Source: a virus (taxonomy: Duplodnaviria; Heunggongvirae; Uroviricota; Caudoviricetes). Taken from it: a stretch of 9,491 nucleotides of DNA. The stretch lies in IMG/VR virus record IMGVR_UViG_2619619129_000006; one strand, 5' to 3'. Shown here in pieces: positions 4,515 to 8,792 of this stretch (positions are counted from its first letter, which is position 1; each line of letters starts with the position of its first letter). The notes under the pieces were generated by a model, which was not told the DNA's origin, ran no database searches, and saw nothing but the letters and a program-made list of their open reading frames with translations. The translations under genes and the position numbers were made by a program.

Positions 4515-4871
4515 TTAAAAAATCAGAACGCCGTGCGGCCTCAACACCCGAAAAGCTTCTTTAAATCTCTGTCGCAAATCATCACGCCAGGCATCTTTAT
4601 TCAGCCGTCCATATTTCTTTCCCATCCAGGCGTTATCACCAACACGCTCAAGATGCGGAGGGTCTAATACAACCATCGAAAAAGATGCGTCTGCAAATGA
4701 TAATGCACGAAAATCTGCGATAATGTCAGGGCTGATAATCAAGCGTCTCCCATTGCGTAATGTGTATCCTTCTTTTCTGATATCGCTAAATATCGCCCGT
4801 TCGTCAGACTTATCGAACCAGAACATGCGGCTGCCACAGCACACATCAAGAATGGTTGCCGGTGCACTCAC
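4515..4871 (-). CDS. SAM-dependent methyltransferase-like protein (motif I-like DVCCGSR, motif IV-like DPPH), probably C-terminally truncated
   Basis: Track ORF, 118 aa; GTG start 4871-4869 overlaps the upstream gene's TGA (GTGA). After the TAA at 4517-4515 the same frame stays open for 29 more codons (WNETQIPVSQILALTDRKPVICQRTGKKR), suggesting a nonsense mutation. Gene order O-like / ~140 aa / methyltransferase resembles what I recall of yfdO-yfdN-yfdM in K-12 prophage CPS-53 (unverified). Confidence 0.55.
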   Translation of the reverse strand: MSAPATILDVCCGSRMFWFDKSDERAIFSDIRKEGYTLRNGRRLIISPDIIADFRALSFADASFSMVVLDPPHLERVGDNAWMGKKYGRLNKDAWRDDLRQRFKEAFRVLRPHGVLIF

Positions 4872-5290
4872 TGCGCCACGTCCTGAAAATTACCCTGATA
4901 GAAAGCCAGTATGCGCTGCATAACTTCGCTCTTCCGGCACTCGCGACAGATTATGTTTAGGCGACTGTCGTAGCGACGTATTTCTCCGTCAGGTGATGAC
5001 CAGATAAGGTCCGGATCAACCACAGCAGGTTTCTTCACCTTTGCCCTCGAGAGTTTTTTGCGGGCGTTTTGCCAGTCCTTACGCGCCTGTTCAGAGGGGA
5101 ATAACCCGTAGCCGGAGTTGTATACATCGCCACTGGCTACCAGCTCTCTGGCAAGAACGCTCATCAGATATCTAGTCGCACCTGTTTTAGCTTCCAGTTG
5201 CCGTAACGTCTCACGGCCGCTCTGGTGCACGAGTTCCACCACCTGCCATTTAATTTTTTCCCGCTCTTCTTGTGTAAAAACTTTTGCCAC
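4868..5290 (-). CDS. Prophage hypothetical protein (140 aa), possible winged-helix region
   Basis: Track ORF with GTG start 5290-5288; MAKVFTQEEREKIKWQVVELVHQSGRETLRQLEAKTGATRYLMSVLARELVASG...; stop overlaps the next gene's start. Confidence 0.55.
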   Translation of the reverse strand: MAKVFTQEEREKIKWQVVELVHQSGRETLRQLEAKTGATRYLMSVLARELVASGDVYNSGYGLFPSEQARKDWQNARKKLSRAKVKKPAVVDPDLIWSSPDGEIRRYDSRLNIICRECRKSEVMQRILAFYQGNFQDVAQ

Positions 5291-5330
5291 AAGTCCCCCT
5301 TAAAATTACCTCATGACCTGAAATCAACAC

Positions 5331-6296
5331 TTATCCTCTGAAACCAGGCGGAATTTCTGTATCCGGTTCAGAAATATGATTAACACAACGCTGTACAGGT
5401 GAACGTCCCAGGCGGATGACCAGTTCGTCCCATTTTTCGCGGAGCTTTGACGGGCTCATGATGTTTTTTACCCAGAATGGATCTCGCTGAACCCGACCAA
5501 ACATTTCGCAAATTTGTCTGTGGCTTCTGCCATCCAGCATCCGCATTGTGCGCACGTCATTGGCCCAGGCAGTCCAGTTAGGCTCTTTTGGTCGCATGAT
5601 CTCGCCATCATCACTGGCTGCCTGTTCGTAGAGACCCACGATCCGCCCCCAGATCCACTGCGCACACGCCAAATCCTCCCTGCTACCCCACTGGCGTTTT
5701 TTCGCACTAAACACAACCGCGTCGGAGTTCCGGGTTAAAAAATCCTGTTCAGTCGTCTGCGGGTCCGGTTGCGAAGCTTCCGGACGAAAAGTGTTTTTAT
5801 TCTCTGTAGTAATCTCTGTTGTATTCTCTGTAAGATCATCAGGCCATTTTGACCCGATGACATTGGGTCGTTTTGAATCAATGGAGCGTTTCATTTTGAC
5901 CTCTTCCATCGTGTCATTTTGACCTGATGGAGCGGCGCATTTTGAACCGATGGATTCGCTCAATTTGCCACCATCTAAAAGCTCGCTCCCATAGTTGATC
6001 GTGTAGAAATTGGTCATATCGCGCTTTGATTTATTGAGCTTTTCACAACGCAAAAGCCCCAGCGTTTTCAGACTTGCAAACGCGCGCTTTAACGTTGACT
6101 CTGACCAGAATGGGAACTGTTCCAGCCATTGTTCCGTTGTGTTATAAATCCAGCGAACACCATCACATTCCATGCCGGAGTTGGTATCTCTCAACCAGTA
6201 GTGCAGTTGTTGCAAAACAATGGCTTCGTTTAAGCCAATTTTCATTGCCAGCTGCGTGTTTATAACCAGTGGGCGTTCAGCAAAAAGAAGGCTCAT
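5331..6296 (-). CDS. Phage replication initiator, O-like (N-terminal HTH replisome-organiser domain, repeat-containing linker, conserved phage C-terminal domain)
   Basis: Track ORF 5331-6350 begins at a TTG; the first ATG is at 6296-6294 (MSLLFAERPLVINTQLAMKIGLNEAIVLQQLHYWL...), giving 321 aa. The linker-coding DNA carries the iteron array listed below, as in lambda O. Confidence 0.75.
   Translation of the reverse strand: MSLLFAERPLVINTQLAMKIGLNEAIVLQQLHYWLRDTNSGMECDGVRWIYNTTEQWLEQFPFWSESTLKRAFASLKTLGLLRCEKLNKSKRDMTNFYTINYGSELLDGGKLSESIGSKCAAPSGQNDTMEEVKMKRSIDSKRPNVIGSKWPDDLTENTTEITTENKNTFRPEASQPDPQTTEQDFLTRNSDAVVFSAKKRQWGSREDLACAQWIWGRIVGLYEQAASDDGEIMRPKEPNWTAWANDVRTMRMLDGRSHRQICEMFGRVQRDPFWVKNIMSPSKLREKWDELVIRLGRSPVQRCVNHISEPDTEIPPGFRG
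5790..5976. repeat. Putative phage replication origin: six ~23-bp phased iterons plus three tandem 12-13 bp repeats, inside the O-like gene
   Basis: Direct repeats of consensus CATTTTGACCNGATGG starting at 5845, 5869, 5892, 5915, 5938, 5961; adjacent tandem units containing TCTCTGT at 5801-5807, 5814-5820, 5826-5832. Confidence 0.65.
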
Positions 6297-6798
6297 AATT
6301 CCATCCAGCTTTTTGTTGGTATTGCTGTCGATACGCAAGCTTGAAAGCAATTGCTTTTTCTATAAGTTCGTCAGTTTCACGATCCACTACGGCAGGATCA
6401 GCAAAAAGCAGTCCGGACTCCACCACATCGCCATATTCTTTGTTTAACCCGGCGATCATGCACGTGATGCTTTTTCCGTCAGTAATTTCACGATACAACC
6501 TGAAATCACTAATCCGGATAGCCTCCATAATCGCAGGCACTAGCGCCGTGAACTTTTCACGCTTATCCCTGGTGTCGATAGCCTTCCAGCGTTCGAATAT
6601 CTTCACTCGATTAACACCAAGCGCTCGCTGATCAACCGCGCCACCTTCATCTGTGACACGCTGAACATCGATGTTCGGGCGCTCTTTCAAAGCCCAGAAT
6701 GCTTCAGTGATTAATATCGTCGCCTGCTCCTGTGTCATTCCTGGTCGACATATCCAGGCATCCAGAGCCTCACGAGCCTGTTCAGGAGTGATTTTCAT
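6277..6798 (-). CDS. Hypothetical protein at the cII position between the cro-like gene and the O-like gene (173 aa)
   Basis: Track ORF; ATG 6798-6796 preceded by a G-rich SD-like stretch; overlaps dicC by 17 nt and the O-like start by 20 nt. MKITPEQAREALDAWICRPGMTQEQATILITEAFWALKERPNIDVQRV... I suspect it is the intact form of the K-12 ydfX pseudogene but cannot confirm. Confidence 0.55.
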   Translation of the reverse strand: MKITPEQAREALDAWICRPGMTQEQATILITEAFWALKERPNIDVQRVTDEGGAVDQRALGVNRVKIFERWKAIDTRDKREKFTALVPAIMEAIRISDFRLYREITDGKSITCMIAGLNKEYGDVVESGLLFADPAVVDRETDELIEKAIAFKLAYRQQYQQKAGWNYEPSFC

Positions 6799-7009
6799 TG
6801 TTCAACCGCCCCGCCCGCTTCGTCTTACGATATTCATCATAAACTTTGGGATCATACTGAAGCTCCCCGCCAGATGCCTCCTGTAGACGCATCGCGCGAC
6901 CTTCAGGAACCAGTATCCCCCAAGCAGCAACACTTGCCAGCCTCACTCCTGCGGCATTGGCAAGCTTTGTTTTGCTGCCAAAAAAAGTAATTGCGTCAAC
7001 TTTAAGCAT
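6782..7009 (-). CDS. dicC: DicC, Cro-like repressor
   Basis: ATG at 7009-7007 (track ORF starts 3 nt upstream at a TTG); MLKVDAITFFGSKTKLANAAGVRLASVAAWGILVPEGRAMRLQEASGGELQYDPKVYDEYRKTKRAGRLNNENHS; ~76 aa, divergent from dicA, as in the K-12 Qin prophage. Confidence 0.85.
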   Translation of the reverse strand: MLKVDAITFFGSKTKLANAAGVRLASVAAWGILVPEGRAMRLQEASGGELQYDPKVYDEYRKTKRAGRLNNENHS

Positions 7010-7021
7010 CAAATCCCCCTC

Positions 7022-7041
7022 TTGTTAGACTTTTCTAACAT
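7022..7041. promoter_or_regulatory. Palindromic operator TTGTTAGA-cttt-TCTAACAt in the dicC/dicA intergenic region (putative DicA site)
   Basis: 8-bp arms with a 4-bp spacer; nearly identical to the palindrome at 7533-7552; lies just downstream of the predicted dicC promoter -10. Confidence 0.55.
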
Positions 7042-7067
7042 TATTGTGCGCGGGATACCTAAGTCAA
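7040..7067 (-). promoter_or_regulatory. Candidate sigma70 promoter for dicC (-35 TTGACT, 16-bp spacer, -10 AATAAT on the - strand)
   Basis: + strand AGTCAA at 7062-7067 and ATTATT at 7040-7045. Confidence 0.45.
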
Positions 7068-7089
7068 GAAAAATTAGAATTACCTAACT

Positions 7090-7497
7090 ATGGATACAAG
7101 AACCCTGGGCCAGCGAGTTCTGGCGCGACGAAAAGAATTACGCTTAACACAACGAGAAGCCGCGCGCCTCGCTGGAGTTGCTCACGTCACAATTTCACAA
7201 TGGGAAAGAGACGAAACCCAGCCAGTCGGAAAACGATTGTTTGCTTTAGCGGATGCTCTGAAGTGCTCACCTACATGGCTAATGTTTGGTGACGAAGACA
7301 AGGCACCAGTGCCTGCACAAGAACTTCATGTGGAAACAGAGCTAACTCCCAACCACAAAGAATTGATCGAATTATTCGATGCTCTTCCATCTTCCGAGCA
7401 GGAAGCCTTGCTGTCTGAAATGCGCGCAAGAGTAGAAAACTTCAACAAACTCTTCGAAGAAATGCTTAAAGCGCGTAAAAATAAATCAATAAAATAA
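7090..7497 (+). CDS. dicA: DicA, cI-like HTH repressor of the dicB operon (135 aa)
   Basis: Track ORF; MDTRTLGQRVLARRKELRLTQREAARLAGVAHVTISQWERDETQPVGKRLFALADALKCSPTWLMFGDEDK...; HTH_XRE-type N-terminus; length and context match DicA. Confidence 0.9.
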   Translation: MDTRTLGQRVLARRKELRLTQREAARLAGVAHVTISQWERDETQPVGKRLFALADALKCSPTWLMFGDEDKAPVPAQELHVETELTPNHKELIELFDALPSSEQEALLSEMRARVENFNKLFEEMLKARKNKSIK

Positions 7498-8603: not shown

Positions 8604-8792
8604 ATGAAAACGTTATTACCAAACGTTAATACGTCTGAAGGTTGTTTTGAAATTGGTGTCACTATCAGTAACCCTGTATTTACTGAAGATGCCATTAACA
8701 AGAGAAAACAAGAACGGGAGCTATTAAATAAAATATGCATTGTTTCAATGCTGGCTCGTTTACGTCTGATGCCAAAAGGATGTGCACAATGA
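8604..8792 (+). CDS. dicB: DicB, cell-division inhibitor (62 aa)
   Basis: ATG 8604 preceded by GAGGG; MKTLLPNVNTSEGCFEIGVTISNPVFTEDAINKRKQERELLNKICIVSMLARLRLMPKGCAQ. The track ORF 8499-8792 is the same frame from an upstream start. Confidence 0.9.
   Translation: MKTLLPNVNTSEGCFEIGVTISNPVFTEDAINKRKQERELLNKICIVSMLARLRLMPKGCAQ

Follow-up and report, generated by a model that had tools for sequence, protein, structure and literature searches.

A probable lambda-type replication origin within the initiator gene of a Qin-type lambdoid prophage

The window analysed here is a stretch of 9,491 nucleotides of Caudoviricetes DNA (IMG/VR record IMGVR_UViG_2619619129_000006). The following features of it bear on replication.

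5331..6296, minus strand: replication initiator gene, 321 aa, with the ATG at 6296 and the stop codon at 5331-5333 (ORF and translation)
5973..6296, minus strand: N-terminal domain (aa 1-108), presumed iteron-binding winged helix (AlphaFold topology H-H-E-E-H-H-E-E, pLDDT 60-80)
5837..5975, no strand assigned: array of six adjoining iterons of 23 bp each, codons 107-153 (repeat search, direct reading and homologous arrays)
5837-5859, plus-strand letters: iteron unit, CATCAGGCCATTTTGACCCGATG
5861-5883, plus-strand letters: iteron unit, CATTGGGTCGTTTTGAATCAATG
5884-5906, plus-strand letters: iteron unit, GAGCGTTTCATTTTGACCTCTTC
5907-5929, plus-strand letters: iteron unit, CATCGTGTCATTTTGACCTGATG
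5930-5952, plus-strand letters: iteron unit, GAGCGGCGCATTTTGAACCGATG
5953-5975, plus-strand letters: iteron unit, degenerate copy, GATTCGCTCAATTTGCCACCATC
5834..5837, no strand assigned: GATC site at the junction of the last iteron and the 12-mer tract (direct reading)
5798..5833, no strand assigned: tandem 12-mers, three units, coding-strand sequence TACAGAGAnTAC (TCTCTGT on the plus strand), codons 155-167 (repeat search)
5406..5759, minus strand: C-domain (aa 180-297), predicted to be helical and a homologue of lambda O in its C-terminal half (BLASTP)
5334..5393, minus strand: C-terminal tail (aa 302-321), QRCVNHISEPDTEIPPGFRG, with 14/20 residues identical to the last 20 of E. coli DnaT
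4868..5290, minus strand: DUF977 gene downstream of the initiator, 'Ren-like' in PHROGs (Pfam DUF977 E 1.8e-28; PHROG 142)
7040..7067, minus strand: pR-like sigma-70 promoter candidate, TTGACT-16-AATAAT, 10/12 matches in a consensus scan alone

The initiator, which is annotated as a 966-nt CDS in RefSeq strain N96, starts with a predicted winged-helix domain, which a disordered linker joins to a C-domain of the lambda-O type; a C-terminal tail follows. Its residues 17-321 match positions 11-298 of the 298 in PHROG 391, 'replication initiation O-like' (E 8.6e-92). BLASTP against lambda O gives 34% identity over 148 aa (E 1e-26), where only aa 147-294 align, and tblastn likewise matches the C-domain to O of lambda, phage 21 and H-19B (E 2e-16). 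The initial annotation had called the protein O-like, and this is right for the C-domain but not for the N-domain, which has no Phage_rep_O match. A Pfam search of the initiator returned no family at E<=0.01, Phage_rep_O included, and no curated family for the initiator or its N-domain was found in Pfam, NCBIfam and PDB sequence searches, with no PDB sequence match below E 0.3. Sub-threshold winged-helix Pfam matches occur in several family members, and the N-domain is ~46% identical to the N-termini of Staphylococcus phage initiators. The initiator is a chimera of a lambda-O C-domain and a winged-helix N-domain that matches no Pfam family. The AlphaFold model was built on an alignment of 20 sequences at least 70% identical; with a mean pLDDT of 54 it is of low confidence, and it served only to place the domain boundaries and to compare the fold tentatively. 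Foldseek gave the RepA N-domain 4pql and the Rep-DNA complex 5kbj as the best PDB matches of the N-domain, both weak (E 0.013-0.2). The linker (aa 109-175) is predicted to be disordered (pLDDT ~25), and so is the tail. The repeats, at codons 107-167, lie in the linker-coding middle of the gene, just where they had been placed before.

The units of the array run head-to-tail; five are clear and one is degenerate, and besides the latter two further units are palindromic on one side only. Each unit is a dyad of about 23 bp, CATCnGGnCA-N3-TGnCCnGATG, whose centre is a palindrome of the GGTCA-N3-TGACC type, and the start-to-start spacing is 24, 23, 23, 23 and 23 bp. Six repeats had been described here with a 16-mer as the unit. 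The six are real, being found both by repeat search and by direct reading, but the actual unit is the longer dyad. Among the copies then claimed, those at 5869 and 5892 are present with 4 mismatches each to the proposed consensus, and that at 5961 is weak, about 6 of the 15 specified positions being different. Over the whole window, the 15-mer of that consensus has 4 matches against 1.4 expected, and 13 of 200 shuffles reach 4, which alone is not significant; bare counting of consensus matches was replaced by tests of periodicity and clustering. The self-identity of the array at lag 23 is 0.54, a value reached by none of 2000 shuffles, in which the best self-identity over lags 8-59 had a mean of 0.36 +/- 0.024. 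The periodicity is thereby upheld on exact computation, and the array is the best periodic stretch in the whole 9.5-kb window. As a control, the same search recovers the four iterons of lambda, at the same position within the O gene. Clustering is seen with the 8-mer CATTTTGA, whose 4 copies inside 140 bp were matched in 0/300 shuffles. The idea that all sites face the same side of the DNA had to be given up: at 10.5 bp per turn the centres rotate by 0, 103, 171, 240, 309 and 17 degrees, much as in lambda. A terminator-like hairpin at 5850-5870 was also considered; it is made by neighbouring iteron arms and was taken as a by-product of the palindromes.

The second element is the tract of 12-mers. 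Tandem Repeats Finder reports a 12-bp array at 5801-5832 with 2.7 copies and 85% matches; three tandem units with TCTCTGT had been noted before, and their number is confirmed, but their length is 12 bp and not 12-13 bp. The more AT-rich stretch that was said to hold them exists as well but is modest, with a GC of 0.325 at 5800-5839, the GC minimum of the initiator gene. The region 5790-5836, downstream of the iterons along transcription, is strand-asymmetric with 70% A+T and 64% purine, a composition matching that of lambda's AT-rich region (73% A+T, 71% purine). The presumed role of this A-rich tract is in unwinding or helicase entry. Stx-phage O genes that show no other relationship at the DNA level carry it with 97.5% identity, and the GATC at the junction of the tract with the iterons is invariant in 9/9 aligned origins from five genera. 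No DnaA box was found near the origin; the sole site with 1 mismatch in the window, at 1649, is within chance.

Since all of these repeats are translated, they might do nothing other than encode a repetitive, flexible linker, selection being on the protein. The short peptide repeats already noticed, SIGSK/SIDSK/VIGSK and TENT/TEIT/TENK, are both present in the translation and visibly speak for it. However, 23 bp is no whole number of codons, and the units accordingly occupy all three reading frames (SIGSK, SGQND, EVKMK), and a peptide repeat is thus excluded for the iterons. Their palindromic cores also carry compensatory changes. As for the 12-mers, in 104 tandem TExT units the first Thr is encoded by ACA in 104/104 (background 24%) and the Glu by GAG in 104/104 (background 49%). 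These invariant synonymous codons mean that selection acts on the DNA, not on the peptide, and an origin of the repeats in the linker peptide is hardly credible.

Conservation of the array was followed in 76 homologues of the N-domain, taken from one-genome-per-species contigs of many genera. In 49 of the 76, the strongest periodicity of the whole gene is at lag 22-24 and starts at codon 94-145, directly behind the N-domain, although these counts ignore shared ancestry. The homologues with an array come from Enterobacterales, Pseudomonas, Campylobacterales, Desulfuromonas, Comamonas, Lactobacillaceae and others, and in several Firmicute homologues no significant in-gene array was detected. The family therefore does not keep the protein while dispensing with the DNA repeats, the outcome named beforehand as one that would speak against an origin. 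A scan of IMG/VR with the N-domain profile brought up near-identical copies from E. coli and hardly anything else, and was uninformative. The iteron cores of the homologues are palindromes NNNCA-N3-TGNNN, both halves of which change together, the flanks being GGT/ACC, GGG/CCC, GGA/TCC, GTG/CAC, GAT/ATC or TAT/ATA. Fully palindromic flanks are found in 31% of the cores against 10.5% in shuffled controls (0/2000). Such symmetric changes look like those of sites for a dimeric protein. It is the N-domain, not the C-domain, that the iteron sequence tracks: Klebsiella and Hafnia phages having the same N-domain with another C-domain keep the CA-N3-TG iterons, and phages 689R6 and LLS, with another N-domain, have iterons spaced by 15 bp.

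Dyad symmetry is also usual in the operators of repressors, and the array lies inside an operon under the control of DicA and DicC. The repeats may then be regulatory sites instead of an origin, serving autoregulation of the initiator operon or a CII/YdaT-like regulator. Against this stand six phased sites in a coding region, always between the two domains of the initiator and followed by a conserved 12-mer tract, a layout that fits an origin and no known operator. The sites, moreover, co-vary with the N-domain of the initiator across genera, whatever the upstream regulators are. We regard an operator function in place of an origin as very unlikely. The conserved array, the co-varying palindromes and the codon-fixed 12-mers together support a lambda-type origin, as first suggested; all elements of such an origin are present here and conserved in relatives. 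The segment 5798-5975 is probably the origin from which a Qin-type lambdoid prophage replicates, and it lies within the prophage's own initiator gene, in the middle part that codes for the linker.

The surroundings of this origin are less well preserved. The pR-like promoter candidate lies upstream of an operon of dicC, a ydaT-like gene and the initiator, and the prophage has decayed in this lineage, with a frameshifted methylase and IS fragments, so the origin may never fire here. Accordingly, the array could be an origin by structure and a silent relic at this locus, kept by linkage or for another role, for instance titration or exclusion of superinfecting phages that share its replication specificity. 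In favor of such a relic, near-identical RefSeq copies have neighbouring pseudogenes or IS remnants, one iteron is degenerate, and plasmids with lambda iterons are reported to inhibit rep-lambda phages (PMC3349717). On the other hand, the initiator ORF, six units, 12-mers and immunity genes are intact, so that the origin itself is unbroken, and this region is 99.8% identical to that of PhiR42_1 and 98.3% to that of HannyBb. The module as a whole shares 96.8-99.8% identity with the deposited phage genomes PhiR42_1, HannyBb and mEp460_ev081, and from such identities it is plausibly functional. Silence of the origin is on balance unlikely. Because an intact origin and initiator stand under DicA control, the 'cryptic' prophage could over-replicate locally if derepressed.

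The replication module departs from that of lambda in what follows the initiator. The DUF977 gene takes the place held by P and ren in lambda, and it is not a recognisable loader. The idea of its product as a hidden loader was discarded, since the gene in this place varies from relative to relative, being YfdN-like, a Dam methylase or PerC. Lambda P, E. coli DnaC and the DnaC-like and DnaB-like genes of Stx phages gave no significant tblastn match in the window, in line with the original remark that no P-like or DnaC-like gene lies nearby; the best match to these queries (E 0.016) is outside the replication module. Likewise, no loader is annotated in the equivalent region of RefSeq. Such absence is typical of 'O-only' lambdoid modules, which were found in 34/314 lambdoid phages and whose replication 'is not yet understood' (PMC12315714).

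The tail of the initiator may offer an explanation. Against the NCBIfam DnaT equivalog, aa 302-321 match model positions 160-179 of 179 (E 0.0056), and the score of 16.3 bits compares with a cut-off of 201, the last 20 residues alone matching, out of a family architecture of N-domain, acidic linker and three-helix C-domain; the DnaT reference for the residue comparison was the MG1655 translation. The initiator is not a DnaT member and shares the tail only. The C-terminal region of DnaT is highly conserved (PMC4129139), and its C-domain docks on PriA via a conserved hydrophobic interface (PMC13377028). The DnaT-like tail associates with the absence of a phage loader gene, and this co-occurrence yields a testable explanation for the missing loader. 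We tentatively propose, as a possibility rather than the expected outcome, that O-only replicons need no loader of their own: a tail copied from the host DnaT C-terminus (...SEPDxxIPPGFRG) would plug the origin-bound initiator into the host primosome (PriA and/or DnaB-DnaC), like an origin-tethered DnaT. The TACAGAGAnTAC 12-mer array would be a second portable part, an unwinding or helicase-entry element common to initiators with unrelated DNA-binding domains.

In the mechanism we infer, dimers of the N-terminal winged helix would bind the six dyad iterons and form an O-some-like nucleoprotein complex. This complex would destabilise the adjoining A-rich tract of three 12-mers, where the host helicase could enter. 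The lambda-O-type C-domain and the tail would recruit the host helicase-loading machinery directly, since P, DnaC and DnaB are all missing from the replicon. Transcription of the dicC/ydaT-like/initiator operon from the pR-like promoter would run through the origin, as in lambda.

The origin is an element of an ordinary kind with a textbook layout, here on an uncurated initiator family, and neither it nor the 12-mer element was found described earlier in the literature. About 140 bp can now be annotated as 'ori' in thousands of prophages and phages of Enterobacterales, and the location of the origin in the gene shows why the linker of these initiators is conserved. It also falls among the initiator-only phage replicons, which are poorly understood; the O-only type makes up about a tenth of the 314-phage panel (PMC12315714). 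For work on O-only replication, the DnaT-like tail and the 12-mers with their frozen codons are two concrete handles that can be mutated cheaply.

Several known systems share parts of this arrangement. In structure, the N-domain model comes closest to 4pql and 5kbj, a RepA N-domain and its complex with iteron DNA, which point to the RepA_N plasmid initiators of Gram-positive bacteria (RepA of pSK41 and pTZ2162), a likeness that is weak (TM ~0.56 on the target, from a low-confidence model) and comes with no Pfam RepA_N match. In RepA_N replicons the iterons reportedly also lie within rep, where they separate the sequences of two domains. These replicons differ in the C-domain, which is of lambda-O type here. 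Phage LLS, an O-only phage (PMC12315714), likewise has a single-gene replication module without helicase or loader, and its O protein has the same motif in its tail, ending in ...KIPEGFRG. However, LLS has other N- and C-domains and iterons spaced by 15 bp, and it lacks ACAGAGA 12-mers of this form.

Among Stx phages, the origins of 933W and P27 likewise lie mid-O and pair six iterons with an AT-rich tract (Kozlowska et al., 2020; PMC7466680), but the O and P proteins and the iterons of these two phages are of lambda type. The O gene of Stx2_14040 has a 40-bp 12-mer tract 97.5% identical to the one here, whereas its N-domain is yet another, its iterons are different, and DnaC-like and DnaB-like genes follow. 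In lambda itself, four iterons are present mid-O, as against six in the Stx phages (PMC7466680) and six here. The prophage further differs from lambda in its N-domain, unrelated to that of lambda O, in its iteron sequence, in the three conserved 12-mers of its A-rich tract, in lacking a P gene, and in the DnaT-like C-terminal tail, which is absent from lambda O. What it shares with ori-lambda is the whole plan: dyad iterons 20-24 bp apart where the middle of the initiator gene encodes the linker, then an A-rich strand-asymmetric tract, the operon order cI-like/cro-like/cII-like/initiator, and a homologous C-domain.

The initial annotation proposed a lambda-type origin inside the O-like initiator gene, and this proposal stands in the form of six dyad-symmetric iterons followed by a 12-mer A-rich tract, both in the region coding for the linker of the initiator. 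Judged from its sequence, the array with its tract is a genuine lambda-type origin, and its function is predicted. The window comes from a Qin-type lambdoid prophage of E. coli, of which it is the immunity and replication region. In RefSeq copies at 99.9% identity, flxA, ydfW, IS fragments and a broken methylase are followed by a DUF977 gene, a 321-aa 'hypothetical protein', a YdaT-family gene, dicC and a dicA-like repressor, and these by ydfABC, dicB, an exonuclease, xis and int. The features around the initiator gene are as follows.

4868-5290, minus strand: DUF977 gene
5331-6296, minus strand: initiator gene
6277-6798, minus strand: YdaT / CII-like gene
6782-7012, minus strand: dicC / Cro-like gene
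7067-7040, minus strand: promoter-like site, sigma-70-like TTGACT-16-AATAAT, upstream of the dicC/YdaT-like/initiator operon
7090-7497, plus strand: dicA-like gene

The promoter-like site is the sole sigma-70-like site in 5200-7200. The dicA-like and dicC genes diverge on either side of it, a position equivalent to that of lambda pR, and transcription from this predicted promoter would cross the origin. A truncated SAM-methyltransferase ORF (4515-4871) and IS1202-like transposase remnants (~1455-2848), annotated as frameshifted or partial genes in near-identical RefSeq copies, adjoin the intact immunity/replication block. A second short tandem repeat (8608-8632, 13 bp x 1.9, AAACGTTAATACC) is found downstream of ydfC, where the dicF/dicB operon is expected.

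The repeats are present where they had been placed, as six contiguous 23-bp units on the plus strand (5837-5975) with spacings of 24, 23, 23, 23 and 23. Their lag-23 self-identity is 0.54, against 0.36 +/- 0.024 in dinucleotide shuffles, and none of 2000 shuffles reached the observed value when the best of lags 8-59 was taken for each. The array is the most periodic 140-nt stretch of the window and is equalled by no other; four copies of CATTTTGA fall within 140 bp, a clustering matched by 0 of 300 shuffles. A more accurate description of the unit is a 23-bp dyad, CATCnGGnCA-N3-TGnCCnGATG. Palindromy extends to both sides in the units at 5837, 5861 and 5907 and to one side in those at 5884 and 5930, and the unit at 5953 is degenerate. 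One-sided palindromy of the 5884 and 5930 units produces a super-period of 46 bp across 5861-5952, where full palindromes alternate with units having GAGCG... instead of CATC... as the distal arm. In many homologues, only alternate units are recognisable, at spacings of 46. The idea that all sites occupy the same DNA face has to be abandoned: on a helix of 10.5 bp per turn, the centres of the sites fall at 0, 103, 171, 240, 309 and 17 degrees, much as for the four iterons of lambda. A terminator scan picks up a plus-strand hairpin of 9 bp with a T-run behind it (5850-5870); it arises from adjacent iteron arms and is probably incidental.

Three tandem units containing TCTCTGT were correctly recognised; they occupy 5798-5833, and each is 12 bp long, not 12-13 bp. 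On the coding strand, this tract is 70% A+T and 64% purine, close to the AT-rich region of lambda (73% A+T, 71% purine), and nowhere in the gene is GC lower. A GATC (Dam/SeqA site) at 5834-5837 marks the exact junction of the last iteron and the 12-mer tract, and is invariant in nine aligned origins from Escherichia, Klebsiella, Trabulsiella, Edwardsiella and Xenorhabdus.

In the iteron and 12-mer region, it is the DNA that is under selection and not the peptide. A period of 23 bp makes a peptide period impossible, and the units are read in three frames, as SIGSK, SGQND, EVKMK, SIDSK and VIGSK. From a one-genome-per-species collection, 80 loci with N-domain homologues were collected, and 76 genes were usable. 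The strongest whole-gene periodicity falls at lag 22-24, starting at codon 94-145, in 49 of the 76 (z >= 4 against codon-position-preserving shuffles; counts ignore common descent), and phased NNNCA-N3-TGNNN cores occur in at least two copies in 61 genes. The flanking trinucleotides, which were not imposed by the search, are palindromic, both sides shifting together (GGT/ACC, GGG/CCC, GGA/TCC, GTG/CAC, GAT/ATC, TAT/ATA). Fully palindromic flanks accompany 31% of 251 cores, against 10.5% with partners shuffled (0/2000; common descent ignored). Such paired changes are the hallmark of sites that serve a dimeric protein with drifting specificity. As for the 12-mers, ACNGARA units follow the iterons in 43/76 homologues, two to five in tandem at 12-bp spacing. 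When units were defined at the protein level as tandem TExT and compared with the rest of the same genes, the first Thr was ACA in 104/104 units (24% elsewhere), Glu was GAG in 104/104 (49% elsewhere), and the fourth-position Thr was ACA or ACT in 102/104. Because these synonymous ACA and GAG codons are invariant, the 12-mers are constrained as nucleic acid.

The 12-mer TACAGAGAnTAC (5798-5833; loci L011-L090, L172-L288) lies mid-gene in initiators of at least four unrelated N-domain types, and some of the initiators bearing it resemble proteins of Gram-positive phages. An exact IMG/VR scan for three tandem 12-mers found at least 120 contigs; among the matches listed, there are 114 host ORFs, every one as long as an initiator gene, in which the median position of the array is codon 155 and the N-domains are of at least four unrelated types. 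In Stx-phage O genes, the tract is 97.5% identical over 40 bp, with no other DNA-level likeness to this gene. Bacillus/Neobacillus N-domain homologues (L066, L067, L070, L074-L076, L079, L085) are shorter, at ~230-280 aa, and no significant periodic array was seen within these genes; the origin may be elsewhere or have fewer sites. The E. coli prophage module also appears at 99-100% identity on contigs labelled Veillonella parvula, Bacillota and Collinsella MAGs (L012, L013, L069), most likely through binning contamination of the assemblies.

The initiator itself is a chimera of a non-lambda winged-helix N-domain and a lambda-O C-domain. Along its whole length it fits PHROG 391 'replication initiation O-like'; it has no match in Pfam, where the N-domain gives sub-threshold winged-helix matches only. 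BLASTP aligns only aa 147-294 with lambda O (34% identity, E 1e-26), and the N-terminal 110-130 residues are ~46% identical to the N-termini of Staphylococcus and Bacillus phage initiators. In a low-confidence AlphaFold model (shallow alignment, mean pLDDT 54), aa 11-108 form a winged-helix-like N-domain and aa 180-297 a helical C-domain; aa 109-175 between them are unstructured (pLDDT ~25), and the tail (aa 298-321) is disordered. In the PDB, the modelled N-domain comes closest to 4pql and 5kbj, the RepA N-domain of a staphylococcal plasmid and its complex with the iteron; both matches are weak (E 0.013-0.2). Iterons (codons 107-153) and 12-mers (codons 155-167) exactly fill the unstructured linker. 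The N-domain recurs with a different C-domain in Klebsiella phage ST147-VIM1phi7.2 and Hafnia phage yong2, which keep 23-bp CA-N3-TG iterons; in Hafnia, where the N-domain is only 48% identical, the iteron sequence is shifted. In phages vB_EcoM-689R6 and LLS, the C-domain or tail is shared but the N-domain is different, and the repeats are GTCAAAATCTGAC at 15-bp spacing. The four annotated iterons of lambda were recovered as a positive control. By these comparisons, the pairing of N-domain and iterons reproduces the classical modular argument for lambdoid origins.

The initial annotation also saw no loader gene nearby, and indeed lambda P, DnaC and DnaB-like genes are undetectable in the window and none is annotated in equivalent genomes. 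The same single-gene module exists in the deposited phage genomes PhiR42_1 (99.8%), HannyBb (98.3%) and mEp460_ev081 (96.8%), and in mEp460_4F5 and Klebsiella and Hafnia phages, with a different next gene in each. Since deposited phage genomes share it, the missing loader does not point to decay. In a 2025 paper on phage LLS, 34 of 314 lambdoid phages are said to have an O homologue alone, a mode of replication that in the words of its authors 'is not yet understood' (PMC12315714).

The initiator ends in the 20 residues QRCVNHISEPDTEIPPGFRG (5334-5393, minus strand; codons 302-321), of which 14 are identical to the C-terminus of E. coli DnaT; this match is the probable source of the RAST name 'Primosomal protein I' given to relatives. 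Many phage initiators whose N- and C-domains are unrelated, that of LLS included, have [IV]PxGF[RK]G as their terminal motif. Within ~2.4 kb downstream of the initiator, a P/DnaC/DnaB-like gene was found for 0/16 tail-bearing versus 21/60 tailless genes of the genome set (Fisher P = 0.004, a statistic that ignores relatedness). In a second, de-duplicated viral set, the numbers are 3/39 with the tail versus 15/27 without (P = 3e-5, relatedness again ignored); all three exceptions are Qin-type loci, possibly caused by an IS-borne IstB-like gene. The tail is absent from initiators adjoining a P homologue, which end in ...HWNSxEAWENTL, and from those followed by DnaC-like and DnaB-like genes, which end in ...SGFSEQDYG.... 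DnaT is regarded as the factor that brings DnaB-DnaC to the PriA preprimosome, and conservation of its C-terminal region is high (PMC5778457, PMC4129139, PMC13377028); a contact of its extreme C-terminus was not found in the DnaT literature. The tail might let the origin-bound initiator borrow the host loading pathway, which we regard as possible rather than probable. The last 63 coding bases and the 31-bp intergenic stretch (5300-5393) are 96.8% identical in phages Evi and vB_EcoM-606R7, whose replication genes are otherwise unmatched at the DNA level, so that a mosaic joint lies at the start of the tail.

The interest of this locus lies in its membership of the uncharacterised 'O-only' class, lambdoid modules with an O-like initiator and no phage loader gene, and in two portable parts, the DnaT-like tail and the codon-frozen 12-mers. 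The layout itself is a variant of the well-known lambda-type origin, set in a chimeric initiator.
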